Shown one piece after another: positions 12,037-59,559 of a stretch of DNA of 64,000 nucleotides (the first letter of the stretch is position 1; each line of letters begins with the position of its first letter). The position numbers were made by a program, and so were the translations under genes. Source of the stretch: Mobula hypostoma (Eukaryota); NCBI RefSeq assembly GCF_963921235.1, contig NC_086108.1, positions 58,964,001 through 59,028,000 on the forward strand, read 5' to 3'. The notes under the pieces are model-generated. The model searched no databases. It saw only the letters and a list, made by a program, of their open reading frames with translations, and was not told where the DNA came from.

Positions 12037-15012
12037 GAACAAATGTTTACTACAGAACAAAGGACTGATCACTTTGTAGTATCCCTTTGCTATTGAAACG
12101 AGGATGTAACTTGATCGGTCTTAAGGTGTTGTACTTAAATGCACGCAGCATAAGGAATAAGGTGGATGATCTTGTTGTACAGCTACAGATTGGCAGGTAT
12201 GATATTGTGGCCATCACTGAGACCTGGCTAAAGGATGCATGTCTCTGGGAGCTGAATGTCCAAGTATACATGGTGTATCGGAAGGATAGGAAGGTAGGCA
12301 GAGGGGGAGGCGTGGCTTTATTGGTAAGAAATGATATTAAATCATTAGAAAGAGGTGATATAGGATCGGAAGGTGCAGAATCTTTATGGGTTGAGCTAAG
12401 GAATAGCAGGGGTAAAAAGACCCTGATGGCAGTTATTTATAGGCCTCCAAACAGCTGCAGGGATGTGGACTACAAATTACAACTGGAAATAGAAAAGGCT
12501 CGTCAGAAGGGCAGTGTTATGATAATTGTGGGGGATTTTAACATGCGAGTAGATTGGAAAAATCAGATCAGCACTGGATCTCAAGAGAGAGAATTTGTAG
12601 AATGTCTGCGAGATGGCTTTTTAGAACAGCTTGTTGTTGAGCCCACTAGGGGATCGGCTGTACTGGATTGGGTATTGTGTAATGAACCGGAGGTGATTGG
12701 AGAGATTGAGGTGAAGGAACCCTAAGGAGACAGTGATCATAACATGATTGAGTTCACTGTGAAATTAGGAAAAGAGAAGCCGAAATCTGATGTGTCGGTG
12801 TTTCAGTGGAGTAAAGGAAATTACAGTGGCATCAGAGAGGAAATGGCCAAAGTTGACTGGAAAGAGGCACTGGCGGGAAAGACGGCAGAGCAGCAGTGGG
12901 TGGAGTTTATGCGAGAAATGAGGAATGTGCAAGACAGGTATATTCCAAAAAAGAAGAAATTTTCGAGTAGAAAAAGAATGCAACCGTGGTTGACAAGAGA
13001 AGTCAAAGCCAAAGTTAAAGCAAAGGAGAGGGCATACAAGGAAGCAAGAATTAGTGGGAAGACAGAGGATTGGGAAGTTTTTAAAACCTTACAGAAGGAA
13101 ACCAAGAAGGTCATTAAGAGAGAAAAGATTAACTATGAAAGGAAACTAGCAAATAATATCAAAGAGGATACTAAAAGCTTTTTCAAGTATATAAAGAGTA
13201 AAAGACAGGTGAGAGTAGATATAGGACCGATAGAAAATGATACGGGAGAAATTGTAATGGGAGATGAGGAGATGGCAGAGGAACTGAACCAATATTTTGC
13301 ATCAGTCTTCACTGAGGAAGACAGCAGGATACCGGACACTCAAGGGTGGCAGGGAAGAGAAGTGTGCGCAGTCACAATTACGACAGAGAAAGTACTCAGA
13401 AGCTGAATAGGCTAAAGGTCGATAAATCTCCTGGACCAGATGGAATGCACCCCCATGTTCTGAAGGAAGTAGCTGTGGAGATTGCAGAGGCGTTAGCGAT
13501 GATCTTTCAAAAGTCGATAGATTCTGGCATGGTTCCGGAAGACTGGAAGATTGCAAATGTCACTCCGCTATTTAAGAAGGGGGCAAGGAAGCATAAAGGA
13601 AATTATAGACCTGTTAGCTTGATGTCAGTGGTTGGGAAGTTGTTGGAGTCGATTGTCAAGGATGAGGTTACAGAGTACCTGGAGGCATATGACAAGATAG
13701 GCAGAACTCAGCATGGATTCCTTAAAGGAAAATCCTGCCTGACAAACCTATTACAATTTTTTGACGAAATTACCAGTAGGCTAGACAAGGGAGATGTAGT
13801 GAATGTTGTATATTTGGATTTTCAGAAGGCCTTTGACAAGGTGCCACACATGAGGCTACTTAACAAGATAAGAGCCCATGGAATTACAGGAAAGTTACAT
13901 ACATGGATAGAGCGTTGGCTGATTGGCAGGAAACAGAGAGTGGGAATAAAGGGATCCTATTCTGGTTGGCTGCCGGTTACCAGTGGCGTTCCACAGGGAT
14001 CAGTGTTGGGGCCGCTTCTTTTTACATTGTACATCAACGATTTGGATTATGGAATAGATGGCTTTGTGGCTAAGTTTGCTGACGATACGAAGATAGGTGG
14101 AGGGGCCGGTAGTGCTGAGGAAACGGAGAGTCTGCAGAGAGACTTGGATAGATTGGAAGAATGGGCAGAGAAGTGGCAAATGAAGTACAATGTTGGAAAG
14201 TGTATGGTTATGCACTTTGGCAGAAAAGATAAACGGGCAGACTATTATTTAAATGGGGAAAGAATTCAAAGTTCTGAGATGCAACGGGACTTGGGAGTCC
14301 TCGTACAGGATTCCCTTAAAGTTAACCTCCAGGTTGAGTCAGTAGTGAAGAAGGCGAATGCAATGTTTGCATTCATTTCTAGAGGAATAGAGTATAGGAG
14401 CAGGGATGTGATGTTGAGGCTCTATAAGGCGCTGGTGAGACCTCACTTGGAGTACTGTGGGCAGTTTTGGTCTCCTTATTTAAGAAAGGATGTGCTGACG
14501 TTGGAGAGGGTACAGAGAAGATTCACTAGAATGATTCCGGGAATGAGAGCGTTAACATATGAGGAACGTTTGTCCGCTCTTGGACTGTATTCCTTGGAGT
14601 TTAGAAGAATGAGGGGAGACCTCATAGAAACATTTCGAATGTTAAAAGGCATGGACAGAGTGGATGTGGCAAAGTTGTTTCCCATGATGGGGGAGTCTAG
14701 TACGAGAGGGCATGACTTCAGGATTGAAGGGCGCCCTTTCAGAACAGAAATGCGAAGAAAGTTTTTTAGTCAGAGGGTGGTGAATCTATGGAATTTGTTG
14801 CCACGGGCAGCAGTGGAGGCCAAGTCATTTGGTGTTTTTAAGGCATTGATACGTATCTGAGTAGCCAGGGCATCAAAGGTTATGGTGAGAAGGCGGGGCA
14901 GTGGGACTAAATAGGATAAAATGGATCAGCTCATGATAAAATGGCGGAGCAGACTCGATGGGCCGAATGGCCTACTTCTGCTCCTTTGTCTTATGGTCTT
15001 ATGGTCTTATGG
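12037..15012 (+). mobile_element. Young 5'-truncated CR1 LINE with almost complete ORF2 (endonuclease plus RT)
   Basis: [50 protein letters not shown] and KFADDTK; lesions are one in-frame stop (12723-12725), one frameshift near 13400 and a small 3' deletion; (TCTTATGG)3 tail. Confidence 0.97.
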
Positions 15013-36990: not shown

Positions 36991-38091
36991 AACAGCCAAT
37001 TTTTATTCATTTACTTTTCGTGTTGAAATAAAATTAAATAATGAAACTTAGAATTAAAGGTATGAAGTATAGTAATATTCCTAAAGAAAGACAGCTATGG
37101 CCTGTATGATATGCTAGTTACCGTGTTTTCTTTGTTGAATTAATTTGAAAGTTTGACAGAAGCATTTTATGTAATTCAAATACAATTAGCCCAAATAAAA
37201 GGCCTCAAGTTGGAAGTACAATTTGTGCTGTGTTTTCTCTAAACGATTTAGTAGGTAGATCTTGCCTTTCACTAAGGCCGAGGTAGGGGATCTTGGGCTT
37301 AAAAAGGTTGGCGACCACTACTGTACACTCTGCTCACACATGACTACAAGGCCAATCGTTCCGAGCAATCACCTTGTCAAGTCCACCGATGACATGACAG
37401 TGATGGGGCCCATCACCAACAATGATGAGACAGCCTGTAGAGAGATAGAAGGACTCAAGGCCTGGTTCTACGCAAATAACCTCTTTCTTAATGTCAACAA
37501 GACAAAGGAGATGGTTATCAACTTCATGAGAACTCACACACTGACACCCCTCTTTTCATAGGTGGCACAGCAGTGAAAACTGTGAGCAGTTTCAAACACC
37601 TGGACGTGCACATCTCACACAACCTCTCATGGTTCCAGAACATATCATGCATAATCAGCAAAGCTCACCAAGACCTTTATTTTCTGAAGGAAGCTGAAGA
37701 GAACTGGGCCATGCATATCTGTACTCACGTCATTCTACTGATGGTCAGTAGAGAGCACCTAACAAGCTGCATCACTGCATAGCATGGAAGCTGCACCATG
37801 GCGGGCAGGAAGGCTCTACAACGCATAGTCAAAACTGCTCAGCGCATCAGTAGCAACAGCCTACCGTGGACATATAGTATGTACAGAAAAGTGCCGGAAG
37901 AGGGCATGAAGGATCTCACCCACCCCACTCATGGACTGTTTGTCCCACTGCCATCAGGGAGGAGACTATACAACATCCACATCAGGATCATCATGTTTAC
38001 AAACTGCTACTTTCCCTAAGCAGTAAGTCTGATCAACACCTCCAGCCAATAATCCACCCCTCCACACCTCCAACCACGACTACTTTATCAT

Positions 38092-38156
38092 TGCGTTCAC
38101 CAGCAACTTTGATGTGTGTTGCTTGAATTTCCAGCATCTGCAGAATTCCTGTTGTT
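38092..38156 (+). mobile_element. 65-bp PLE terminal fragment
   Basis: Matches the pLTR tail of the 56-57 kb copies; 11-bp TSD TACTTTATCAT (38081-38091 and 38157-38167). Confidence 0.85.
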
Positions 38157-38331
38157 TACTTTATCATCACCTGTCAATCATTTTATGTACAGGTACTCCT
38201 GTGCCTAGCATCACTTTATGGACATTAAATCAATCTAAGTATATAAGCTATCATGTATTTATATTTATTTTGTTCCACACCTAATTGTGTTTTTTTTGTG
38301 CTGTAACAAATCCAGAGTAATAATTATTTTG

Positions 38332-38542
38332 CAAACACGAGGAAATCTGCAGATGCTGGAATTTCAAGCAACACACATAAAAATTGCTGGTGAACGCAGC
38401 AGGCCAGGCAGCATCTATAGGAAAAGATATAGACGATGTTTTGGGCTGAGACACTGGGTCTCGGCCCAAAACGTCAACTGTACCTCTTCTTATAGATGCT
38501 GCCTGGCCTGCTGTGTTCACCAGCAATTTTTATGCAAGTTGC
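38332..38542. mobile_element. PLE-derived fold-back element
   Basis: Inverted arms centred near 38455; 14-bp TSD TAATAATTATTTTG (38318-38331 and 38543-38556); both arms are cut before the CTGANGA box. Confidence 0.88.
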
Positions 38543-38629
38543 TAATAATTATTTTGTTCTCTTTTACACTTGTGTACTGGAAATAACATTAAACAATCTT
38601 GAATTACCCTGAATTACTTGAATTATTAA

Positions 38630-41582: not shown

Positions 41583-42987
41583 ACACTGCGTACTCATGAA
41601 ATGACACTGAGAAAATACAGTCCACATACTAACTGAAAAAAAATCCTCTTTTTAAAAAAATAATTGGCCTAGTTGTGACAAAGGCATATTATCAAATTGC
41701 AGACGAAGGGGGTCGCCATTATAGGAATTGAAAGAATGGATTCTGGTCACCATGTCTTTCTATCATTCTTCTTATCATTTCTTGACTATTCCTTGACTGC
41801 TCTCTAACAGTTACACTGTTTTTTTGGTACTTGGTGACTTCACACACATGTGATATTCTTTCAGATACCTTTGTTAGGAAATTCACATGTATGGTCTAAA
41901 AGGTCCTGAGGATAGAGATTCCCAGACACCTAAAATTAATGCTGTGAGGGCTGACTGTCTGAGCACATAAATCTCCCAACTATTGATTGATCAGCTATTT
42001 GATATGCTAAGTGACAATATTAGTCTGGTCTGCAAGTTTACTTGAGCTAAATAACTTAGCCAGTGTTGTCTAGTTTGAGGCCGGACTAGTTAACATGAGC
42101 ACATTGTCTTACACTGTATCTCTTGAGTAACCAGCCCAATACTGTGGGCCAGCAGTCTGATCTCTATAGACAGTGTTGTTTATTTGCAAAGCCATCCTTT
42201 TAACTTCAGACTGATTATTGCTTGCAATGTATTCCTGAGTAAAGAATATTGGTTGGGAGTTCAACCTACTCAGAAAAAACTCTTTGACCCCCCCCTGCCC
42301 TCCCCCCCGGAAGAGTCAGCTGCTGTGTTAGAAAGTTGAGCTTGGCAAAGAGCACATCTGGCAGTGAATATCCATCACACTAGTGTCTAGTTCATGACCA
42401 TCAGCCATCTTTCAATCCTACCTGTAAATAACCCTAAAGTGATGCATTCTAATTTTGCACACTAATCCTTTATGTGGGACGCGGGATCTACTGTCAAAAA
42501 TTTTGCTCTAATGTCACATTGAAAAGAGATTGGAATACCTAGAATATGTATTTGTTTTCCCTTAAATATGGTCGCACAGAGTTACCTGGCTGGTATCCCG
42601 ATGCTTAAACTGATGATCGGGAGACACGAATTTGAACCCTACAATAGCAGCTGAGAATTTAAATTATAGTAATTGTCTGTGTCTAGCATTAGCTGCAGTG
42701 ACCAAGGAATTACTGTCATTGGAAAAACTGTTAGATTCACTAACACTAATCAGTACAGAAAATCTACTCCTTGTTTGACTTAGTTTAAATGACTATGTCC
42801 ACAGCAATGCAATTGACTCCTAACTGTCCTTAGAATAGCAGAGCAAGTCAACAGTACAGTGACAATAAATAATAAATGGTGGCCTTGATCATGGCGTCCA
42901 AATCCTATGAGCAAACAATGAAAACTTCCTATTCCCATTGTGGGCCAAATATTAATGCAGCTCTCTGCTTCACACAGCACTAATCAA

Positions 42988-43215
42988 GAATCTGCAGAAC
43001 TGGTAAATCTGAAATAAAAACACGAATGCTTAAAGACTCAGCAGAAAAGGCACATATGTGGAAAGTAAAACTGTGTTAACATTTTAGATCAGCGACCTTC
43101 TATCATATCAAAACTCTTCATCAGATGAAGGGCCATTGATTTTAAATGTTAACTTAGTTTCTTTTTCCACAGAAGCTGCTTGACTGGCTGAGAAATTTCT
43201 GATATTTCTTCTTTT
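42988..43215. mobile_element. Ancient degenerate PLE fold-back
   Basis: ctgcagaactggtaaatctgaaa..actcagcag..gttaacatttt on one side and cagatgaagggcc..aaatgttaac..gctgcttgactggctgag on the other. Confidence 0.55.
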
Positions 43216-43279
43216 ATTATCTCTAATATTATATTCATATTTTATCTGGCAAGAAGTAGACTGGAGCTCCTCAAGTGGT

Positions 43280-44031
43280 TGCCAGTGGAACAAGTACTGC
43301 ACCTGTCCCTACACCTCCGCCTTTACTATTATTCAAACACTCCTTCCAGATGAGGTGACACTTCACCTGTGAGTCTGTTGAGGTCATCTATTATATCCAG
43401 TGCTCCCGGTGTTGCCTCTTGTATATCGATGAAACCCGACATTGATTGGAAGACCGTTTCACCGAGAACCTACGCTCTGTCCGCTAGAAAAAGCAGGATC
43501 TCCCAGAGGTCATCTTAATTCTACTTCCCTTTCCCATTCCAACATGTCAGTCCATGGGCTCCTCTACTGTCGTGATGAGGCCACACAGGTTAGAGGAGCA
43601 ACATCTTATATTTTGTCTGGGTAGCCTCCAACCTGATGGCACGAACATTTATTTCTCAAACTTCTGATAATGCTACCCCCCCCATTTCCTGTTCCCTTTT
43701 CACCTTCTCATCGTATCTCCTTACCTGCCCATCACCTCCCTCTGGTGTTCCACCCCTTTTCTTTCTTCCTTAGCCTTCTGTCCTCTCCTATCAGATTCCC
43801 CCTTCTCCAGCCCTGTATCTCTCACCAATCTTTACTTCATCCTTTCCCCACTCCTGGTTTCACCTATCACCTTGTGATTCTTCTTCCCCTCCCCCCACAG
43901 TCTAACTCTGACTTCTTATCTTTTTTTGTTCAGTCACGATGAAGGGTCTCGGACTGAAACGTCAACTGTACTCCTTTCCATAGATGCTGTCTGACCTGCT
44001 GAGTTCCTGCAACATTTTGTGTGTGTTGCTT
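43280..44031 (+). mobile_element. PLE (Neptune-type) 3' fragment: Cys-rich linker, GIY-YIG endonuclease, pLTR
   Basis: CQWNKYCTCPY; HFTCESVEVIYYIQCSRCCLLYIDET; LGSLQPDG; decayed hammerhead motif at 43931-43968. Confidence 0.88.
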
Positions 44032-44171
44032 ATTATTTAACAGTTTGTTTTTAACTTTGCTCTTCTTATTTTAAAGATTTTTAAAAACTAAAACATTTTA
44101 AATGCAGGCCAATTGGTAAAGTGAATGAAACACCACATCATTATTGTTGAAAGACACCGGAACTAAGAGCA

Positions 44172-44376
44172 AACAAGAGGAATTCTGCAGATGCTGGAAA
44201 TTCAAGCAACACACATCGAAGTTGCTGGTGAATGCAGCAGGCCAGGCAGCATCTGTAGGAAGAGGTACAGTCGACGTTTCATGCCGAGACCCTTCGTCAG
44301 GACTAAATGAAGGAAGAGTTAGTAAGAGATTTGAAAGTGGGAGGGGGAGGGGGAGATCCAAAATGATAGGATCACA
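44172..44376 (-). mobile_element. Single PLE pLTR fragment with intact hammerhead core
   Basis: TSD TAAGAGCA (44164-44171 and 44377-44384); minus strand 44268-44305 reads tagtc-CTGACGA-agggtctcggcat-GAAAC-GTC-gactg. Confidence 0.85.
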
Positions 44377-47300
44377 TAAGAGCAGATAGAGTGAGAAACA
44401 GCTATTCACTTGCATTGTTTGAAAATTAAAGGTATAGAGAAATTGGTGTTTGATTGTGAATACGCTGCAGTTTTTCATTTCAGCTGCCTATTATACTACT
44501 CATCCCAAGTCCACAATTTCCCTTGTATTTGCTTCAATGACGAGGGATGGGAGTACCATCACTATCATTTTGGAGATCACAGATGAGGTTCTATTCTACA
44601 GATATGTAGTAAAAAAAATGGACAGGGATACAGATTTTCAGAATTATGGTTAAAAAAATGACAAATAATCTTGCTGATACTGTATTAATATAATAAGGAT
44701 TTAATGATGAGACTGATTAAACAAGAAAATGTGAAGCTTATTGGTGCAAAACAAAACCTTGGTCCTGTTCTGGGACATTCACACAGCTGTGATATTTTAG
44801 ATCTACATCATATTTGTATTATCTAATTTCATTCTGATATTCCATATTTGGAAGTTTTGTTTATGCTTCACAAAAGCATCCCTCAATATTACTTATTAGC
44901 AACCAATCAATGTTTTTTTTTTCCCTTCTTGTACTTTCTTTATTTCTTTTTTACCTCTGTAATTCCACGTGCACAATAAATTCTGCATTTCGACTGTGTT
45001 CCGAGCAATGGTTTCTTCTGATTACCTTTTTAGATTTAGCAAATACTAACTTAGTATATGGCTTTTGGTTACAGTCATAACATCTCACTTTTCACTGCCA
45101 TTAACCACTCTAAGCAGATATCATTTTAAAGATCTTATAGTAAGTTAATTTATGATTTACTTGTTACAGCTTCTTGTAAAGAAACATTTTGATAAAAGCT
45201 CAAAATGCAAAGAACAGAATTTTCCATAGTTAAGGGCCAAATTGATGAGGCTAGTATCCTGGGAGCAGGGATATATTAGAATATCCAATATATCAAGATG
45301 GGGAGAGGGATAACCGTTCTCCCTAAAGAGTCATCGAGTTGTACTGCACAAAAATGAACATTTTGGCCCGCCACAAACATGTTGAAAATGTTTTCCCATC
45401 TAGTTTAATTCCACTTTCTTGCACTTTCATCTTACCTTCTTTGCCTTGCCTATTTAAGTTTCTGTTAGAATCAGATTCTTCCTTAATGCCCCTTAAACAT
45501 AATAATTATATCTGATTCCAAAAGAGTGGTCACCATAAACACAGTATTTATTGTGCCCAAGAATATGACCCACATAGCACTCCTTTTGTGATGTGTGCAG
45601 CACTAAGGCAGTTTCACAGAAAAAAATGTTATTTCAATGCATTAGCTCCTGTGTTTTGACAGAATATTTTAGTTGGAAAGGATTACAATTTTATTATGAA
45701 AGCAATTCAGTTTTTTTCTTAATGGTATAGATTATCATAAACTACCCAGTACAACAAAACCTGCATGCTTATTTTTCACATGGTTTATTTCATTCTATGA
45801 ATAATGTGTTTTTGATGGGATCTGATTCTTGCTGAAAAAAGGTGAGTGTCACTGATTCATTAAATTGATATAACCACAACTAAATTATACATCTTTGAAT
45901 TTCAGAGCAAGAGGTTTACTCATCTGAACTTCGTACTATTGAGTTCAAATTTGAAGTACAGCATTTGTTTCAAATGTAATGAAAAAAATAATTTTTGATC
46001 TACTATTCATACCCAACTTTAACAAACATACCATTAAAGCTTCTTTTTTATTCCAGTCATTTTCTTTGTTATTCCAGCTTTAATGTAGAAAAATCTATAT
46101 TAGAGCTAGAATAGGAATAGTGCCAACTCTAATTGTGCTCAGAATTGCATTGAGTCCACAAATAACAGGAATATTGCCTAATTGCTCATTATGACACTAA
46201 TAAACATTTACATAAGTCATTGAGCAGAATTTAATGCTCTTGTGCATAAATTTAATCATTATATGATCATATGAATATGGTTGCTTTTGTTAACATTCTC
46301 ATAGATTAAACAGAACTTCACTATGCTGTCATTTATTTTGGGTTAAATGAAGAGTAACCTTTCAGTCCTTTTTAGCAGTGGTAAAATGAGGTTACACCAT
46401 GGCAAGAAAGTTCTTTTTTACATCTGTGCTATGTATATTTAAAGCCTTTTATCAGAAGAAGCATAAGGTGGCCCTTGACCATGACAGAATTTTACGAACA
46501 ATTTTTTTTGACTGGTCATGGTCAATTCAGGGTCCTGCAAGAGACAACTTCATCTTTCATTAGCTAGTGAGAAAGTCTCCAGCAGTCTTTGAAAAAAAAT
46601 GCTGGCTAGTGTATTATTTCAAATGGTAGGATCCAAGTTCTGAATTTTCAGTATGCCTGGCTTGCAGATATAACTGTAAAGGTCAGCTTTCATTGCCTAC
46701 TCCCCAATGGTATCTCAAAAAAGTTGCCTTCTTGAATTATGGCAGTTGGCATGGTAAAGTACTTCTACATTGCTTCTGGATAAGGATACCAGGATCCTGA
46801 TCAGCAATAATCAGGGAATGATTATATATATAAGGTAAGGACAGTGCCTCAAATGGACAGCCATTTGAAGGTGATGAAGCTGCATATGCTGTTTTAGTCT
46901 TACTTTATGATAGATATTTGATGATGTGATGTTGTTATACATTTTGTAGCTTATACGTCTTGTAGAGACAGTGGTATGGAGAGCGAATGGGTTTGGTCTT
47001 GCCACAACTGGTCCACTACTTGGAATTACCATCTTTGTCTGATTGGCTAGAAGGGAAGGGCTAATCTTCTTAGCCTTCTACACTGAATATGGTGGCAAGT
47101 CTAGGCAAAGGATAAGGCTCAGGTGGCACAGTGCAAAGGGTTGGCACCCAGCACTTCCTGTTTGGTTTCAGCAGAAAGGAAGCAAGGATGGAACTTTGCC
47201 TCTGTCAAAACTGTCATAAGTTCACATTTTTAAATGTGCCTGACATTCAGAGGCATTTAAAATCAATTAAAATTGCAATGAATGAAAAAAACTAATAACA

Positions 47301-51168: not shown

Positions 51169-51844
51169 AGTAGCCCCCCTGGCTACCCTCAGGGTCGCTC
51201 GGCTCGCTGTCATCTAGGGAAACAGCCCTCGGCCCCGCCAAACTGGGTAATAGTTTGTGTGGATGCTGTGTGATGTACCCCACCCCACCCAAATAACAGA
51301 CAATACACCAGATACAATTAAATGATTTACAGTTTATAGATATTACTGGGACTATATAATTAATAGAGAATAAAATATATAAGGAAAATAAAAGGCGCCA
51401 CACTGATCAAAGTTCAATTTCTTCGTGCACAACAGTTGGAGCTCAATCAATTCCTGACGACCACCCGGATCCTGTCGACTCACGGCTCGGGACCGGAGCC
51501 TTTCCGCACGTCCACCATCCTCTCTGTCTCCTCTCCTCGCCGAACACCCCGCTCGGGGTCCCACCCCATTAGCGGACCCCACAGCACCTTCCATTCTCTG
51601 TCCCTCTCTCCCACCTTCTGCCTCAAGACCCCACGCATGTAGTATCTTCAAATTCACCAAAAACATAACAACTATCCCAATTGGTTCATTCGTCCTCATA
51701 TCAATAGATAATACAAAACAAACCGCTAGCGGGAAGGACTTTCTCGGCATTTAACATAACAAAGAAGCATTCCTCAGTATAACATAACAAAGAAGCCATT
51801 TTAATTAGCCTCCGCAGTAACATAAAAGACGAAAACCCCTTACA
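51169..51844 (-). repeat. 3' LTR (676 bp)
   Basis: Direct repeat of 54625-55303, roughly 95% identical by eye; terminal T changed to A at 51169. Confidence 0.96.
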
Positions 51845-51856
51845 CTCTCCCCCACC
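51845..51856 (-). other. Polypurine tract
   Basis: Minus strand GGTGGGGGAGAG directly before the TGTAAGGGG start of the 3' LTR. Confidence 0.85.
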
Positions 51857-52344
51857 AAATAAAGTCATGCCCTCATGACTTCTAAATAAATCTCCAACCA
51901 GTCCTGCAGACACACAACACACACATACACAGATACGCACAGTGACAGTGCTCCCCAAACAGTGGACCTTACGCCTGTCCTACGGGCACTACATAGGCCA
52001 ACCTATCTGGGAGCTTCTTAACCCTCCGAGACCTCCGCACCCTCTCACCTAAACCCAAAAGGCTCAGACACTACTAGGGATACCTTGGGCCTGCTTGCCA
52101 ACTCCTCTCTCACTCAGGCCACCATTACAGCTCGGAGCCCCCAGTCCCGTGACCAGGGCCCCACCTCTTTTCCTTCCTGATCCTGCTGTAACTCAGACTG
52201 CCCACAGCTAGGTCTCCCCACTTCACCTGACTCAGTGGGAAAAGGGCCAAAGGTCTCTTCCTCAATCACGGGGAAGTTAGCGGAAGGCAGCATGTACTAC
52301 ATGTGCAGCACATCATCCTTCGAATCCGTATTCTTCCTCATTCC

Positions 52345-53190
52345 CTCGATCGATAGCTGCTGTTTGAGTTTCTCCACACTGAAACATTTAGCCGGGGCTA
52401 CTCTTTCGGCCTCCTGCAGTCGAGACGTCGGCTTCGGGGACTCCTTCAACTCTCACCACAGCCTCAGCAGCTCTGACTTAGGGTTCTTGGCCATCTCCAT
52501 CTGGGATGCAGTTACCCCACCAGCTTCTTCCACCCTGACCTGAAAAGCAGCAGTTAAAAGATGTTCAGCCTCCAGTTTTTCTTCCTGATGACGTCTTCCA
52601 GGTCAACTTTCAGGCTCCTTTCAAATGTCCGCCTCCCTTTTCCGAGATCTGTCCTCCATTTCTTCATTTCACCGGGAGTGTAGTCAAACTCCCCTCCCTG
52701 GGCTCTCGGTTTTCTGCTGGCCTTAGTCAGAACACTTCCTTGATCTTCCCCAACTTTTAAGTCTTCCAATCTTTCATGAATCGACGTCTTGAGTTTCCGC
52801 TGATCCCTTCGAAGGTGGGTCATTGTTTCTTCTTGCTGGATTAATTCATCAGTACATGACCGCAGTGTCGGCTCGGAATTCCGTTGCTCCTTCTCTACGT
52901 TGACGAGCGTGAATTCCAAATCTGCAATGGTCGTCCCACAAACGTGGCACTCAGTCTCCGGCCAGCATTTCTGGGCACTCAGTTCAGCGGTGCAAATCCC
53001 CTCTCTCCCCTGTGTCTCTTTCAAATTGACGACCTGGGTTTTCATCCCCAGGTCCACCAACGTCTTTTCCAACACCAGGAAGTTCAACTGGTATGTCGGG
53101 TCAATTTTCTCACATTGCACCAAACTCTTCCGGCCAAAAACTCCTCCACATTTTATACTTCGCTTTTGTTGCCTGGGCTCAGCCACTCGC
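52345..53190 (-). pseudogene. Captured, internally deleted sarcomeric myosin heavy chain rod (S2/LMM) fragment
   Basis: ORF 52554-53195: AELSAQK..ETEC...IADLEFTLVNVEKE...LEDLKVGEDQGSVLTKA...KKWRTDL..RRTFERSLK; second frame 52345-52587: [54 protein letters not shown]; motifs are colinear with the myosin II rod as I recall it. Confidence 0.85.
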
Positions 53191-53191
53191 C

Positions 53192-53480
53192 TCACCTCAT
53201 AGCCCCCCCGGCGAATCCAAACTCTAGGAGGTCATCCACATACGTCAAAACTCCACACACCTTCACTTCCCCCATGGTCTTCCTCTTGCCCTGCGGGAAG
53301 GATGCAGGGGCTCCGGATATGCTCTTGGGCATCTTTTTGGATCGGAAGAATCCTAGGGAACTAATAACGGCCGTCGTCGGCTCGACAGCCACACTCCTCG
53401 GGATCTGGCAACATCCACTCCTCAGATCCAGCACATTAAACCACGTCGCATAATCCACACACATGCTGCCTCCATCTTCC
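53192..53480 (-). pseudogene. Degenerate, deleted Gypsy RT fragment
   Basis: [35 protein letters not shown] and TYVDDLL; ends just after the YxDD motif. Confidence 0.9.
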
Positions 53481-53689
53481 ACGCCGCTAGGGTCCAGTTG
53501 CCGTGACCTCTCTCTCACTGAGGTGTCTTCAGCGGTCAACTCCCCTCCCTCATGGTAGTTTGGAGCGTCTACTAAGAGGGTCTCACCCTCAGCTACTTTC
53601 CCCAGGCTGTACTACCGCTGGGTCTTGTTTAAATTCAGTACCGGCTCAAGGCTGCTACACATGTCCCCAGAAGCAACTCGACGCGCTGG

Positions 53690-53960
53690 CTGCCCAGACA
53701 ATGCCCCCATGAACTCCAGGGTCATTAACCAATCATTGTCTTCTGGATAACTACTGGCACTGGTACCCAAAATCTCCGGTGCCCTTGCGGTTGTCAAGGG
53801 TAAATGCTTCAGACACTGGTTGTAAAACGAACTGTACAACTTGACCTGTGCCCCGGGGTCGAGGATGGCTTTAGCGTCGCTTCCCTCTATCCGTAATGAC
53901 ACCCTCGGGCGTGGTCCCTCTACGCCTTCAGGAATAGGGTCTTCTCCTTTCGGAAGTTCA
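53690..53960 (-). pseudogene. Degenerate Gypsy aspartic protease
   Basis: PIPEGVEGP...[14 protein letters not shown]: the DTG/DSG site reads DPG. Confidence 0.8.
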
Positions 53961-54099
53961 TTGGTACATTGCTGGGAACATGCTTCCCCAGAGACCCCAA
54001 GCCGTTCCCCCACTGGGCCTTCACTAAGTTTCCCGACACCCCTCTGATTAGCTGAACAACTGACGGAGGGGCTGATCCCCTGAAATGATCCCCCGGCAC

Positions 54100-54600
54100 T
54101 GCAAGCAATTTAGCTGCCCTCCTAGCCAGAGAAGACACACTGAAAACTTTCCCCCCTCTTTCAAATAACTGACAGCTGTCACTCCGGTGTAAGTGAACCT
54201 GACAGCTCTAACACCGTCACCAGCCCGCCTACTCAAACTTTCAACCAATCCCTGTCGCTCTCCCTCCACCGAGCACTGCCACTCATCTAACAACTGAGAG
54301 ATCCACTCTGCCCATGTCTCGCACGTCTCCGCCCCTTTTGGGGTGGACACTATCCCCAGCGCCAGACCGAGCCTGCCAGAGCTAGAACAATTATTCGCAG
54401 ACCCTACCTCCAAATCAGACCACTCTTTCCTCTCTCTCCCAACAGCAAGGACAGCCCCGAGTTCCACCTCCAACTCGTCAATGCTAGTCTGAACTCGAAC
54501 AAAGACCGCACCCACCACGCATGCAGCAATAACCAGCAAATAACCCACAGAGACACACATTACAGATTTAAACAGGGCACCCACACAGCATACAGTAGAC
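54100..54600 (-). pseudogene. Degenerate PNMA-type gag remnant
   Basis: [41 protein letters not shown] resembles the PNMA/Gypsy capsid motif (P.GEE.FE.W....L.EWQ.S..EKR..L.ESL). Confidence 0.8.
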
Positions 54601-54603
54601 CCA

Positions 54604-54621
54604 ATCTGGGACGAGCCTCCA
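54604..54621 (-). other. Primer-binding site, tRNA-Pro-like
   Basis: Minus strand TGGAGGCTCGTCCCAGAT matches the canonical Pro PBS TGGGGGCTCGTCCGGGAT at 15/18, 3 nt after the 5' LTR. Confidence 0.8.
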
Positions 54622-54624
54622 CAT

Positions 54625-55303
54625 TGTAGCCCCCCGGTCACCCTCAGGGTCGTTCGGCTCACTGTCATCTAGGGAAACAGCCCTCGGCCCCGCCAAACTG
54701 GGGTAATAGTTTGTGTGGATGCTGTGTGATGTACCCCACCCCGCCCAAATAACAGACAATATACCAGATACAATTAAATGATTTACAGTTTATAGATATT
54801 ACTGGGACTATATAATTAATAGAGAATAAAATATAAAAGGAAAATAAAAGGCACCACACTTATCAAAGTTCAATCTCTTCGTGCACAAAACAGTTGGAGC
54901 TCAATCAATTCCTGACGACCACCCGGATCCTGTCGACTCACGGCTCGGGACCGGAGCCTTTCCGCACGTCCAGCGTCCTCTCCATCTCCCCTCCTCGCCG
55001 AACACCCCGCTCGGGGTCCCACCCTGTTAGCGGACCCCACAGCACCTGGTCCATTCTCTGTCCCTCTCTCCCGCCTTCTGCCTCAAGACCCCACGCATAC
55101 AGTATCTTCAAATTCACCAAAAACATACAACTATCCCAATTGGTTCATTCGTCCTCATATCAATAGATAATACAAAACAAACCGCTAGCGGGAAGGACTT
55201 TCTTAGTGTTTAACATAACAAAGAAGCATTCCCAAGTATAACATAACAAAGAAGCCATTTTAATTAGCCTCCGTAGTAACATAAAAGATGAAACCCCCTT
55301 ACA
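54625..55303 (-). repeat. 5' LTR (679 bp)
   Basis: TGTAGCCCC...CCCCTTACA on the plus strand; direct repeat of 51169-51844. Confidence 0.96.
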
Positions 55304-56129
55304 TATATATATCTATTCCCACTACCTACACTAACTACTGCATAGCCTTTACTGACATCCCAGTCTGAAATTCATCTCAAACCCCATTTGAAAGTACTTC
55401 CTTTTTACCCCTTTCCAGCTAGCATTCCTGATTATTTCCATACTGGATCAAACTATTGACTCTGTGGTTCAGGAATCTGGAGCCATCACTTGCCCAATTC
55501 CCTCACTGATCCTTAGTGCAGCAACTTCTCCTAAACCCTGACAAACAACATTTAATCCTTGGTCTAAGCCTTCTTACTCATCATCAGCTCATTTCTACCC
55601 CCTTATAATTAATTTCACAATCCATTTGTAACCCTGTCCTGACCTGACACTTGAGGACTCAATCACCTCTCAATGAAATTTGACTCTGAGTCACATAAGA
55701 TGATATGATGACTGAGAGGCAGAAAGCTTGGCTATGACACAGATTTTAAAAGAGAAACTAGATAAAGAGAAATAGAGTTTAAAGAAGAAATGATATAGCT
55801 TCTAGCCATGATATCAAAAAGGCTAACTTCCAATGATGGAGCAAGTACATTTGAAGATACTCAAGTGACCAAGAGCAGGGGATACAGAGTTGTGTGGGAA
55901 AGTATTTTTCACCCAGTGAATGGTTATAAAACTCATATAATCAAACAGGCGTGGAAATAGTCAATCAAATCTCAAGTCTGAATAAACATACAAAAGGAAT
56001 TGTGAGGTCAGAGAGATGGAACTGAATATTCTCCCTCTGCCATACTGATTTGTATTTTCTACAATTGAGGATTTCAAAGGTAGAGCAGAACTGGTAGTGG
56101 AAAAGGACAATCTTAGTTATGGTGCTAAT

Positions 56130-56383
56130 AACAGGAATTCTGCAGATGCTGGAAATTCAAGCAACATACATCAAAGTTGCTGGTGAACGCAGCAGGCCAG
56201 GCAGCATCTATAGGAAGAAGCGCAGTCGACGTTTCAGGCCGAGACCCTTCATCAGGACTAACTGAAGGAAGCTCTGGAAGCCTTCAGTTAGTCCCGACGA
56301 AGGGTCTCGGCCTGAAACGTCGACTGCGCTTCTTCCTATAGATGCTGCCTGGCCTGCTGCGTTCACCAGCAACTTTGATGTAT
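56130..56383. mobile_element. Young PLE-derived fold-back element with hammerhead motifs
   Basis: Arms 56163-56268 and 56281-56386 (106 bp, 2 mismatches, 12-nt loop); 14-bp TSD GTTATGGTGCTAAT (56116-56129 and 56384-56397). Confidence 0.95.
56223..56260 (-). ncRNA. Minimal type I hammerhead ribozyme motif
   Basis: tagtc-CTGATGA-agggtctcggcct-GAAAC-GTC-gactg; the opposite-arm copy (56289-56326) has CCGACGA, a core mutation. Confidence 0.8.
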
Positions 56384-57155
56384 GTTATGGTGCTAATCTT
56401 TGGGTGAAATATGAAAACATAGTGGCATACAACTTGCATAAGTTTCTTACAGGTGCTATTGAGGAGGATGAAGTTGTTGTCGCAAGAACACAAGAATTGA
56501 ACACAAGGGTTTTGCTATTCCCTAATATCCAGTTGGAGGGGATTTCTGCCATTAAGTGCTGTACATCATGCAAGTAGGTCCAGAATTTAGAAATGCAGAA
56601 AGGGCTGAGAAAGGAAGTAGTGAGATCAAACTGGATAATACTTGCATACATGTGAATGTTTACAAAGGTTTGCAAGTTTTATTAAAGATTTAGACTCTGG
56701 AATCCAAAATATAGTTTCTAAATTGACAGAGGAAATAAAATTAGTGGGGATAGCCAAGAATGAGAAGTATCATGACAAATTACAATACAGTGCTAATATA
56801 TTTTCAATATGGCCATATAATTGGCAAATGAATGCCTGTACTGAACAGTGGGAAATATTAAATGTTGTTAAGAAAAATTAAGTTGCCATATATTACTTGA
56901 AAATTGGAAACTAAATGGGGTAGAAAAATAAAGGAGGCTCATAGTCCAATTACACAAATCATTATAACTATGTTAGTAGGGCAATTAAAAAGAAAGCTGA
57001 GCACTATGGTTTATTCCTAGATGAATATAATTAAAGCACAGAGAAGTCATGTTAAATGTTTCAACAGGAATTCTGCAGATGCTGGAAATTCAAGCAACAC
57101 ACATCAAAGTTGCTGGTGAACGCAGCAGGCCAAGCAGCATCTATAGGAAGAGGCG

Positions 57156-57193
57156 CAGTCGACGTTTCAGGCCGAGACCCTTCGTCAGGACTA
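57156..57193 (-). ncRNA. Minimal type I hammerhead ribozyme motif
   Basis: tagtc-CTGACGA-agggtctcggcct-GAAAC-GTC-gactg. Confidence 0.8.
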
Positions 57194-57202
57194 ACGTAAC
57201 TA

Positions 57203-57240
57203 GGGTCCTGACGAAGGGTCTCGGCCTGAAACGTCGACTG
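57203..57240 (+). ncRNA. Minimal type I hammerhead ribozyme motif
   Basis: gggtc-CTGACGA-agggtctcggcct-GAAAC-GTC-gactg. Confidence 0.75.
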
Positions 57241-57786
57241 CGCCTCTTCCTATAGATGCTGCCTGGCCTGCTGCGTTCACCAGCAACTTTGATGTGTGTT
57301 GCTTAAATGTTTCAACTTGGGTTACACTATGCATGGAATTCTTTTCTTGCTAACATGTTTCAAAATTGATTGAGTGACACTAGTCACATATAAAAATGAT
57401 TTCCAAAGATTATACTTTGAGTTGTAAGCCTACACCATCAGCAAAGTGTGAACAGAAAAATCTGTGAATGACGACCTAATCGTCATCTTTAAAATTATTG
57501 AAGGTCTTGATGAAGTTAGACAAAGTAGGATACTTTCCCTTTTGAGAAAGAGCTAATCTGTTATTTGAGAAGGCACCAATAAATCAAAAAGGGAAAAATT
57601 TTTACTCAGACAGACACAAGAATACAGCATACAGAGTGTGGTGTAAATGGATTTAAAAGGAGGTTCGAGAAGCACATGAAGGAGGAAGAATGAAAGGGCT
57701 ATGCATCTTCTTGCTCAGTCTGCATAAGCATTTACAAATTAAGTTAGAGTTTTGTAAGCCTCTGTACGGCTCTGTTGAAAGGGTGG

Positions 57787-59559
57787 CACACACAACATGC
57801 TGAAGGAACTCGACAGGTCAGGTAGCATCTATGGCGGGAAATAAACAGTTGATAATTTGGGCCCAGACCCTTCATCAACACTGGAAAGGAAAGGGGCAGG
57901 GCAGAAACCAGAATGTGAGGGTGTTGTGGGCAGGAGGGGGAGTACAAGCTGGCAGGTGATAGGTAAGACCAGATGAGGGGGAAGACAGGCAGGTGGGGGA
58001 GGAGTATTGATACAAGAAACTGGTAGGTGATAGGTGGAAGAGGTAAAGGGCTGATGAAGAAGGAAGAATCTGATAGGTGAGGGCAGTGGACCATGGAATA
58101 AAGGGAATAAAGTGGGGAACCAGAGGCAGGTGATAGGCAGGTCATGGGGTAGAGGATGAGAAAGAATGAGAAGGTAACCAGAATGGGGAATGGAAGAAGA
58201 GAGAATGAGAGGGTTTGTCAGAAATTGAGGAGAGTGATTAGCAGAAGTTGGAGAAATCAATGTTCATGCCATCAGGTTGCAGGCTGCCCAGATGGAATAT
58301 CAGGTGTTGCTCTTCCAACCTAAGTTTGGCCTCACTGGGGCTATAGAGGAGACCATGTACAGACATGTCAGAATTGGAATGGGAAGTTGAACTGAAATGG
58401 GTAGCCACTGCGAGATCCTGCCTTTCGTGTTGGACAGAACAAAGGTACTCAACAGAGTAGTCTCCCAATCTGCTTTCATTCTCACTGATTTACAGGAAGC
58501 TGCTCCAGGAGTACGGGATGAAGTGGATAACCCCGGCAGACTCCCAGGTAAGGTGTTGCCTCCTCTGGAGTGCCTGTTTGGGGCCCTCAATTGTGGTGAG
58601 GGAAGAGGTGTAGCACTTGTCACATTTTCAGAGATAAGTGTAGATCAGTGGGGAGGGATGAGTAGACAAGAGAGTCATGTGGAGAACAACACCTACAGAA
58701 AGTGGAGGGGGTGTGGGTAGAAAAAGATGTGCTTAGTGATAGAATCCAGTTGAAGATGCTGGAAGTTATGGAGAATAGTGTACTGGATATGAAGGTTCTT
58801 GGGGTGGTAGACAATGACAAGGGGATCTCTATCCCTATTACAAAGGAGGGGGAACAGAAGTACAGGAAATGGTGGAGGGCAGCATCAATGGTAGTGGAAA
58901 TAAAACCCCAGTTTTAGAAAAATGAGGACATCTTAGATGTTCTGGAAAGAAGCCCTCATCCTGAAAATTGATGCAGTGGAAATGAAAGAACTGAGAAAGG
59001 GAAATAGCATTTTTACAAATGACAGAGTGGGAAGAGGTATATTCAAAGTAATTGTGAGCCAGTGGATTTATAAAGAATGCCAATGGATAGTCTGTCTCCA
59101 AAATGGAGACAGAGAAATTGAGAAAGGTGACAGAGGTGTCAGAAATGGATCTGGTAAATCTGAGGACAAGTGAAAACTGGAGAAAAGAAAATGATGAAAT
59201 TGACAAGTTCAACATTGATGCAGGATGCAGAATCAATGTGGTTGTCAATGTAGTGAAGAAGGAGTTGGGAAACATTACCAGTGTACTTTGCAACATGAAC
59301 TGATCCATGTAGCTGATAAAAAGACAAGCAAAGCTGAGGCCCATCTGAGTGCCCACGGCTACATTTTGGAGAAAGCAGGAGCAGTAGAAAGAGAAAGAAA
59401 ATTGCTGAGGGTAAGATCCAATTCTGTCTGATGGAGGAGAGTGGAACATTGACTGATTATTTCCCTCCATGGATGCTGCCTAACCTGTTAAGTCCTTCCA
59501 GCATTTTTGTATCTGTTGGTCAAGATTTCCAGCATCTGCATAAGTTCTTTTGTGTTAAC
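57787..59559 (-). mobile_element. 5'-truncated PLE (RT C-terminal half, GIY-YIG, pLTR) with an inverted 5' pLTR
   Basis: VAVGTQMGLSFACLF and LLHYIDNHID (RT motifs); EQHLIFHLGSLQPDGMNIDFSNFC (endonuclease end); inverted pLTR at 59445-59557; imperfect TSD tgaaagggtgg / tgagagggtag. Confidence 0.9.

Follow-up and report, generated by a model that had tools for sequence, protein, structure and literature searches.

The two inserts described here, E1 (56130-56383, 254 nt) and E2 (57066-57302, 237 nt), are each best explained as a separate, recent retrotransposition of a Penelope-like element (PLE) that left two truncated pLTR ends back-to-back, likely through priming on both target strands, and with hammerhead motifs that are predicted to be inert; we assign this reading a probability of roughly 0.8. 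Both lie in the window, the 64-kb stretch of DNA analysed in this study. Each insert is bounded by its own exact 14-nt target site duplication (TSD), and the inner TSD copies are 654 nt apart. A repeat at least as long as these was obtained from 11 of 20,000 random flank pairs placed 250 nt apart. On the top strand, each insert shows the same order of TSD, antisense arm beginning at its tail end, central junction, sense arm and TSD. Both left arms carry an unpaired tail, of 33 nt in E1 and about 28 nt in E2, that the right arms lack, and the two left arms differ at 4 of 133 positions. The first-pass annotation had described two inserts of about 240-250 bp, about 0.7 kb apart, each a near-perfect hairpin of 100-106 bp with its own 14-bp TSD and a different loop. 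This anatomy and its coordinates were correct, with inverted pairs of 106 and 104 nt found at 98% identity; what it missed were the unpaired tails, the G-U pair at 10.1/11.1 of the hammerhead motifs and four further fold-backs in the window.

The left TSD of E1 (56116-56129) was located by repeat search and occurs as one copy only in the contigs from two relatives that have the site empty. It is followed on the minus strand by the PLE tail (56130-56162), a 3' extension that the arm alignment places on the left arm only (the term is used as in the available parts of PMC8557442 and PMC11167929), and by the left arm (56163-56271, minus strand), which repeat search and arm alignment identify as a 5'-truncated pLTR 3' end. 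This arm contains a minimal hammerhead motif (56224-56259, minus strand) with an intact CUGAUGA core, G10.1-U11.1 and a predicted cut between 56228 and 56227. The central junction (56272-56280) consists of 9 extra nt, including a repeat of the adjacent GGAAG, and leads into the tail-less right arm (56281-56383, plus strand), where the hammerhead motif (56290-56325, plus strand) has a broken core, with U4 changed to C at 56295. The right TSD (56384-56397) is an exact repeat that also agrees with the empty-site contigs. The inverted pair (56163-56268/56281-56386) is 106 nt long at 98% identity with a gap of 12 nt and includes a 3-nt overlap with the TSD at 56384-56386; without this overlap, the arms are 103 nt long with 2 mismatches. 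The predicted fold of E1 has an energy of -228.9 kcal/mol (z of -29 against 200 shuffles).

In E2, the last 4 nt of the left TSD (57052-57065) also match the 3' end of the element, and microhomology blurs the limits of the tail of about 28 nt (57066-57093, minus strand). The left arm (57094-57195, minus strand), again recognised by repeat search and arm alignment as a 5'-truncated pLTR 3' end, carries a minimal hammerhead motif (57157-57192, minus strand) with an intact CUGACGA core and G10.1-U11.1. The central junction (57196-57204) has 9 extra nt resembling nearby arm sequence, and the tail-less right arm found by repeat search (57205-57302, plus strand) begins with a hammerhead motif (57205-57239, plus strand) that has an intact core, a shortened helix I and a predicted cut after 57235. 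The first 6 nt of the right TSD (57303-57316) equal the continuation of the template at 5 of 6 positions. The inverted pair (57088-57191/57205-57308) is 104 nt long at 98% identity with a gap of 13 nt, or 98 nt with 1 mismatch without the TSD overlap.

Sequence comparison supports the view that the arms of both inserts are the 3' ends (pLTRs) of a PLE family encoding a reverse transcriptase (RT) and a GIY-YIG endonuclease, as the first-pass annotation had proposed. The window also contains older relatives, at 71-74% identity to the arm, that continue directly into coding remnants, namely a GIY-YIG remnant at 43335-43664 and an RT plus GIY-YIG remnant at 58244-59458. A phmmer search returned 695 matches up to an E-value of 0.001, the best being a stingray protein (P0001, XP_059828265.1; 72% identity, E of 4e-18), and tblastn aligned this protein to the two remnants with E-values of 1e-28 and 1e-44, respectively. 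Its source name, 'mucin-2 isoform X2', is probably a mis-annotation, the C-terminal part being a PLE GIY-YIG endonuclease. Among 10 phmmer-matched proteins searched against Pfam, 9 contained GIY-YIG or RVT_1 at E < 0.01, with 2 above the curated cut-off. A direct Pfam search of the decayed ORF remnants recognised no domain, and two word-index protein searches gave no match. The closest protein matches (P0001, P0046, P0073 and P0116) have a CX2-5CxxC linker upstream of GIY-YIG, found in decayed form at 43280 and 58627, and this linker marks the Neptune/Nematis type in the available text of PMC8557442. The 64-kb window contains neither an ORF nor a full-length copy of the young subfamily to which E1 and E2 belong, and the coding link therefore runs via the older relatives. 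On this evidence, the host is most probably a ray. A 24-nt family pattern gave no match to viral and metagenome contigs. Overall, the inserts combine several hallmarks of endonuclease-bearing (EN+) PLE insertion: homology to an RT plus GIY-YIG 3' terminus via older relatives, a TSD with a matching empty site, an inverted, 5'-truncated, head-to-head copy, and a tail at one end only. As a separate observation, TACTAAC followed by a pyrimidine run and CAG lies directly upstream of helix I at 56260-56271 on the minus strand, as it does at 44300-44325 on the minus strand, where CAG is CAT; the arrangement resembles a branch point followed by a 3' splice site, and the intron of the Drosophila virilis PLE is described as ending at helix I in the accessible portion of PMC4209133.

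Six fold-backs were found in the window, with central junctions that differ among all six and arm lengths from below 100 to about 1650 nt. Besides E1 and E2, these comprise an older copy with a 13-nt TSD at 2397-2973, in which the short arm is tailed and the tail-less arm is about 250 nt longer and reaches the ORF end; a copy at 38331-38543 (38321-38557 with its surroundings and 14-nt TSD), in which both arms are cut inside the hammerhead and joined without a loop and the tail-less arm is nested within the tailed arm; an ancient, decayed hairpin that belongs to a related PLE family, at about 42978-43200; and a decayed inverted unit with RT and GIY-YIG remnants at 57787-59551, in which a tail-less arm of 1.65 kb faces a short tailed arm and a TSD was sought and not found. 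Single copies also occur. A young one, at 38081-38169, is 5'-truncated to 67 nt and has a tail and an 11-nt TSD with no inverted partner, while a tailed copy at 44161-44381, 92% identical to E1, has a possible 8-nt TSD and extends about 100 nt upstream past the hammerhead. Sequence comparison further identified a decayed PLE copy with RT and GIY-YIG remnants at 43270-44031. Two other kinds of element were noted in the same DNA: an LTR-retrotransposon-like element at 51170-55303, whose ORFs are decayed and whose direct terminal repeats of 680 nt are 94.7% identical, and a LINE-like element with long, near-intact ORFs at 12069-14860, which we take to be CR1/L2-like and which has many older copies across the window.

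The age of the inserts was assessed with contigs from four public runs aligned to 55600-57780, including those of organisms A (X1), B (X5) and C (X10). Contigs from organism A span all four outer junctions of E1 and E2. In organism B, one contig (record 15) runs gap-free from 56115 into 56384 and from 57051 into 57303, with 20 substitutions in 1662 nt, and in organism C one contig (record 9) likewise has both sites empty, with 73 substitutions in 1662 nt. The empty sites are precise and retain a single TSD copy each in both relatives, which indicates that E1 and E2 are young insertions; the earlier claim that the two are young and independent is supported. A G variant at 57154/57242, found in all four arms, accounts for 29-32% of the depth in organism A, 1-2% in organism B and at most 1% in organism C, and this contrast places both inserts in a young subfamily that expanded in the lineage of organism A. 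The pLTR family itself is very abundant: six arms of at least 92% identity occur in the 64-kb window, and the depth in organism A is about 0.9-4 million over the arms against about 8 in the flanks, a ratio that is not a copy number. Low cover of the flanks in run X9, which may be RNA, was left out of the evidence. The possibility that E1 and E2 reflect an assembly artefact, a DNA-transposon MITE or a miRNA gene is close to negligible. Long perfect inverted repeats can indeed be mis-assembled, but all four outer junctions are bridged by the organism A contigs. Further points against this reading are an inverted repeat made asymmetric by a tail, TSDs varying from 8 to 14 nt among copies, and arms that are PLE ends. 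Three Rfam miRNA models do match the inserts with E-values of 9e-8 to 5e-4; however, these scores fall far under the gathering cut-offs and reflect hairpin shape only.

The first-pass annotation had left open whether such hairpins are extreme products of 5' truncation or a self-propagating, non-autonomous family. Contig joints on 55600-57780 were surveyed among the best 15 of 730 by depth and the best 12 of 472 with letters between the joined parts. From these, 17 antisense-to-sense joints (12 and 5, respectively) were mapped, the other 10 being deletions, head-to-tail joins or a duplicate. The 17 joints among those listed have 17 different position pairs, which speaks for varied junctions, and three of these pairs are probably one junction in different subfamilies; the listed joints reach depths of 80-236, or about 10-40 single-copy equivalents, and several occur only in organism A, which would fit a limited re-amplification of some hairpins. 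The junctions of E1 and E2 themselves would align without a joint, and their absence from the joint table carries no weight. At the centre of the E2 loop (57200), depth is 508 in organism A and 353 in organism B, which is without E2, compared to about 2 million in the arms, so that the loop amounts to about 0.02% of arm depth in organism A. With six different junctions in the window and, judged from the depth of E2 only, a loop that is not amplified, the shared junction of a propagating family was not seen, and de novo formation of E1 and E2 as separate 5'-truncated insertions is favoured. It is distinctly unlikely that the hairpins form a non-autonomous family, whether MITE-like or retrozyme-like, copied as whole units by a PLE enzyme. 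The near-equal size and layout of E1 and E2, the more frequent and organism A-specific junctions and the fold prediction that leaves the tail unpaired at the 3' end of a minus-strand transcript would suit such a family; set against them are the loops and end points, which differ between E1 and E2 and across the six fold-backs, the similarly low E2 loop depth with and without E2, and the fact that one frequent junction appears to recur in different subfamilies and organisms. In addition, many of the frequent junctions lie on microhomologies of 2-4 nt or on a CTATAG palindrome, and recurrence is thus a simpler account of them than amplification. A retrozyme-like unit would also require tandem hammerheads, which these hairpins are without. 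If, with the same small probability, a subset of fold-backs were nevertheless re-copied as whole hairpin RNAs by a Penelope enzyme, constituting a retro-MITE, the antisense arm would mask the hammerhead until the element's protein opened the hairpin, and its first subfamilies would be represented by the organism A-specific junctions, at 10-25 single-copy equivalents.

Two further kinds of joint were observed in this survey. In one (57160 to 57236, organism A, depth 48), both arms end at the predicted cut site and 22 nt of tail sequence are joined to the cut-site end, which could reflect a circular or end-jumped RNA template. In the other (56258/56259 to 57062, organisms A and B, depth 38-70), the tail end is joined head-to-tail to the start of helix I, giving short, retrozyme-like tandem repeats with a unit of about 130 nt. 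The idea that copies are generally truncated at the predicted cut site was considered and set aside: 4 of 34 mapped joint ends, drawn from the joints ranked best by depth, fall exactly there, two of them in one record and one blurred by a 4-nt microhomology, and other positions recur too.

De novo insertion may have proceeded in the following way. The GIY-YIG endonuclease would nick both strands of an AT-rich target 14 nt apart, an activity suggested by the available part of PMC11167929, while the TSD and empty site are observed. The element RNA would then pair over 2-6 nt with each target 3' end, at its tail end in one case and about 30 nt upstream in the other; the microhomology and the two end points are observed, and the priming step is the interpretation placed on them. 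Synthesis of both cDNAs would break off after 130-140 nt, shortly beyond the hammerhead, and a few extra bases would be included where the ends are joined, the junctions again being observed and the end-joining presumed. The product would have no ORF, and its read-through transcript is computed to form a duplex of more than 100 bp that buries the ribozyme, so the hairpin would be a dead end that contributes dsRNA at most. That two RNA-templated primings, one per nicked strand, made each fold-back is more likely than not. The order of TSD, antisense arm, junction, sense arm and TSD would be expected if each staggered nick primes first-strand cDNA. In the copies aligned, the positions of the tail-less ends vary by a few bases only. 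The outer junctions match the template over 3 nt (one pair being a G-T wobble), 3-4 nt, 4 nt and, again with one wobble, 6 nt, a comparison that comprises four junctions only and has no null; the narrow range of the ends and the TSD microhomology match a second RT start site. In the anole system, as far as the excerpts of PMC11167929 extend, the PLE protein, modelled as a dimer, cuts both strands and extends them, two RNA start sites bound the tail, and the hammerhead is dispensable for insertion. The same excerpts describe initiation at RNA sites without homology to the cut DNA, which counts against microhomology priming.

The main competitor to two-strand priming is a snap-back mechanism, in which the 3' end of the tail-end cDNA folds over to copy its own strand, or the RNA primes itself on a template of antisense sequence, the latter having been proposed for such palindromes (Arkhipova 2013, PMC3846280, in the part available). 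This is a rather unlikely alternative, yet one that E1 and E2, taken by themselves, also fit and that has specific evidence behind it: the tail-less arm is nested within the tailed arm in E1, E2 and the copy at 38331-38543, short repeated bases occur at the loop, and the arm alignment identifies two minor variants common to both E1 arms and absent from E2 and from the copies designated solo44 and solo38. The copies at 2397-2973 and 57787-59551 argue against it, since their tail is on the short arm and their tail-less arm is far longer; at 2397-2973 in particular, copying of one arm from the other can be excluded in either direction. Two further points against it are the template microhomology to the TSD and the confinement of the tail-less ends to the same few nucleotides. 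The inserts are young, with clean empty sites in a relative diverged by about 1% and with preserved junctions, and two-strand priming and snap-back could consequently be distinguished by counting.

All four arms have the hammerhead layout C(U/C)GANGA-A-GGG-UCUCGG-CCU-GAAA-C-GU-C with a helix I of 3-5 bp, an extra A after A9, a palindromic 15.2-16.2 segment (ACGU) and a GUC triplet. The CUGANGA core is intact in three of the four arms, as had been noted before, the exception being CCGACGA (U4C) in E1-right. All four have G10.1-U11.1 where a G10.1-C11.1 pair is conserved, and older copies read CCCA and CCTG, consistent with decay of CCCG. An Rfam search of the inserts, an approach that had been suggested for finding hammerheads, returned 10 matches up to an E-value of 10, which included no hammerhead model and only sub-threshold miRNA models. 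The motif features agree with the minimal type I hammerheads that had been claimed, and folding predictions agree with the claim that the fold-back sequesters them: the energy penalty for imposing helices I and II is 62.7-70.9 kcal/mol in the whole hairpins, compared to 4.0-7.7 kcal/mol in single arms (ViennaRNA). The hammerhead motifs of E1 and E2 are accordingly modelled as inert passengers, predicted to be locked by the fold-back. Two-copy ViennaRNA folds, which cannot judge catalysis and were given no weight, yielded an extended duplex (-30.7) in preference to a dimeric hammerhead (-10.7 when forced). The further idea that a ribozyme motif is placed on whichever strand is transcribed holds at the level of sequence, but the plus-strand core of E1 is broken, and the 5' ends meet in the middle, so that transcripts of either strand contain the antisense arm first and a single sense motif, whereas motifs of this kind depend on a partner.

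It is very improbable that the hairpins are working, strand-independent ribozyme switches. Three intact cores, the isolated E2-left arm, in which helices I and II are predicted to form with a probability of about 0.8, and the cleavage of an anole PLE hammerhead when the element's protein is present, which it requires (PMC11167929, in the text available), are the points in favour of this idea. In the whole hairpins, however, the predicted probability of helix I is at most 1e-39, and the antisense arm precedes the one sense copy on both strands. A single minimal motif gave no cleavage and dimers cleaved poorly in the accessible part of PMC4209133, where G10.1-C11.1 is also described as highly conserved, while the arms examined here have G10.1-U11.1 throughout and U4C in one. 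Furthermore, selection would not yet be visible in insertions of such recent origin. A recent burst of perfect hairpins of more than 100 bp is a likely source of dsRNA, and siRNAs in Drosophila map to inverted Penelope copies (PMC3681739, available part).

The fold-back architecture of E1 and E2 is already published and is ordinary for PLEs. An inverted, 5'-truncated copy with a tail of 30-40 bp on one end is described as typical of these elements in the available parts of PMC8557442 and PMC3846280, and the mechanism giving rise to inverted copies is called undefined in the former. Like the inverted-pLTR EN+ PLE insertions in these sources (PMC3846280; Craig 2021, PMC8557442), the inserts have a one-end tail, a variable TSD and a head-to-head palindromic junction; compared to the insertions described there, both partners here are 130-140 nt long and give a near-symmetric hairpin without an ORF, the family is extremely abundant, the tail is 28-33 nt long and empty sites exist in two relatives. 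The boxes, the extra nucleotide after A9, the palindrome and the short helix I resemble the minimal type I hammerheads of metazoan PLEs (Cervera and De la Pena 2014, PMC4209133, as excerpted), but the motifs studied here have G10.1-U11.1, a helix II of about 4 bp and one broken core, and the members of a pair are about 15-30 nt apart, while pairs on opposite strands are reported there at 100-700 bp. Similarities to Anolis Poseidon PAc in vitro (Frangieh 2024, PMC11167929, in the part accessible) include an AT-rich target, a pLTR hammerhead and start sites that bound the tail; in contrast, relatives of the ray family carry the CX2-5CxxC linker of the Neptune/Nematis type, the junctions show short microhomology, and the accessible text offers no model for inverted inserts. 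Our literature search, which left most subscription papers outside its reach, found no paper that deals with the ray family or explains PLE inversions by priming on two strands. With non-LTR retrozymes, as far as the available text of PMC7229834 and bioRxiv 10.64898/2026.07.22.740005 goes, the inserts share a non-coding, PLE-pLTR-related make-up and a type I hammerhead; retrozymes are head-to-tail tandems that allow dimer cleavage, whereas the arms of E1 and E2 meet head-to-head and each strand has one sense motif. A retrozyme is characterised by two or more successive head-to-tail units whose hammerheads are intact, and the arms here are inverted. In L1 twin priming, cDNA synthesis starts from both target strands and the two products are joined in the middle, giving an inversion without duplication. 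E1 and E2 differ from this in that the second start has a fixed position close to the element's 3' end, and the outcome is therefore an inverted duplication.
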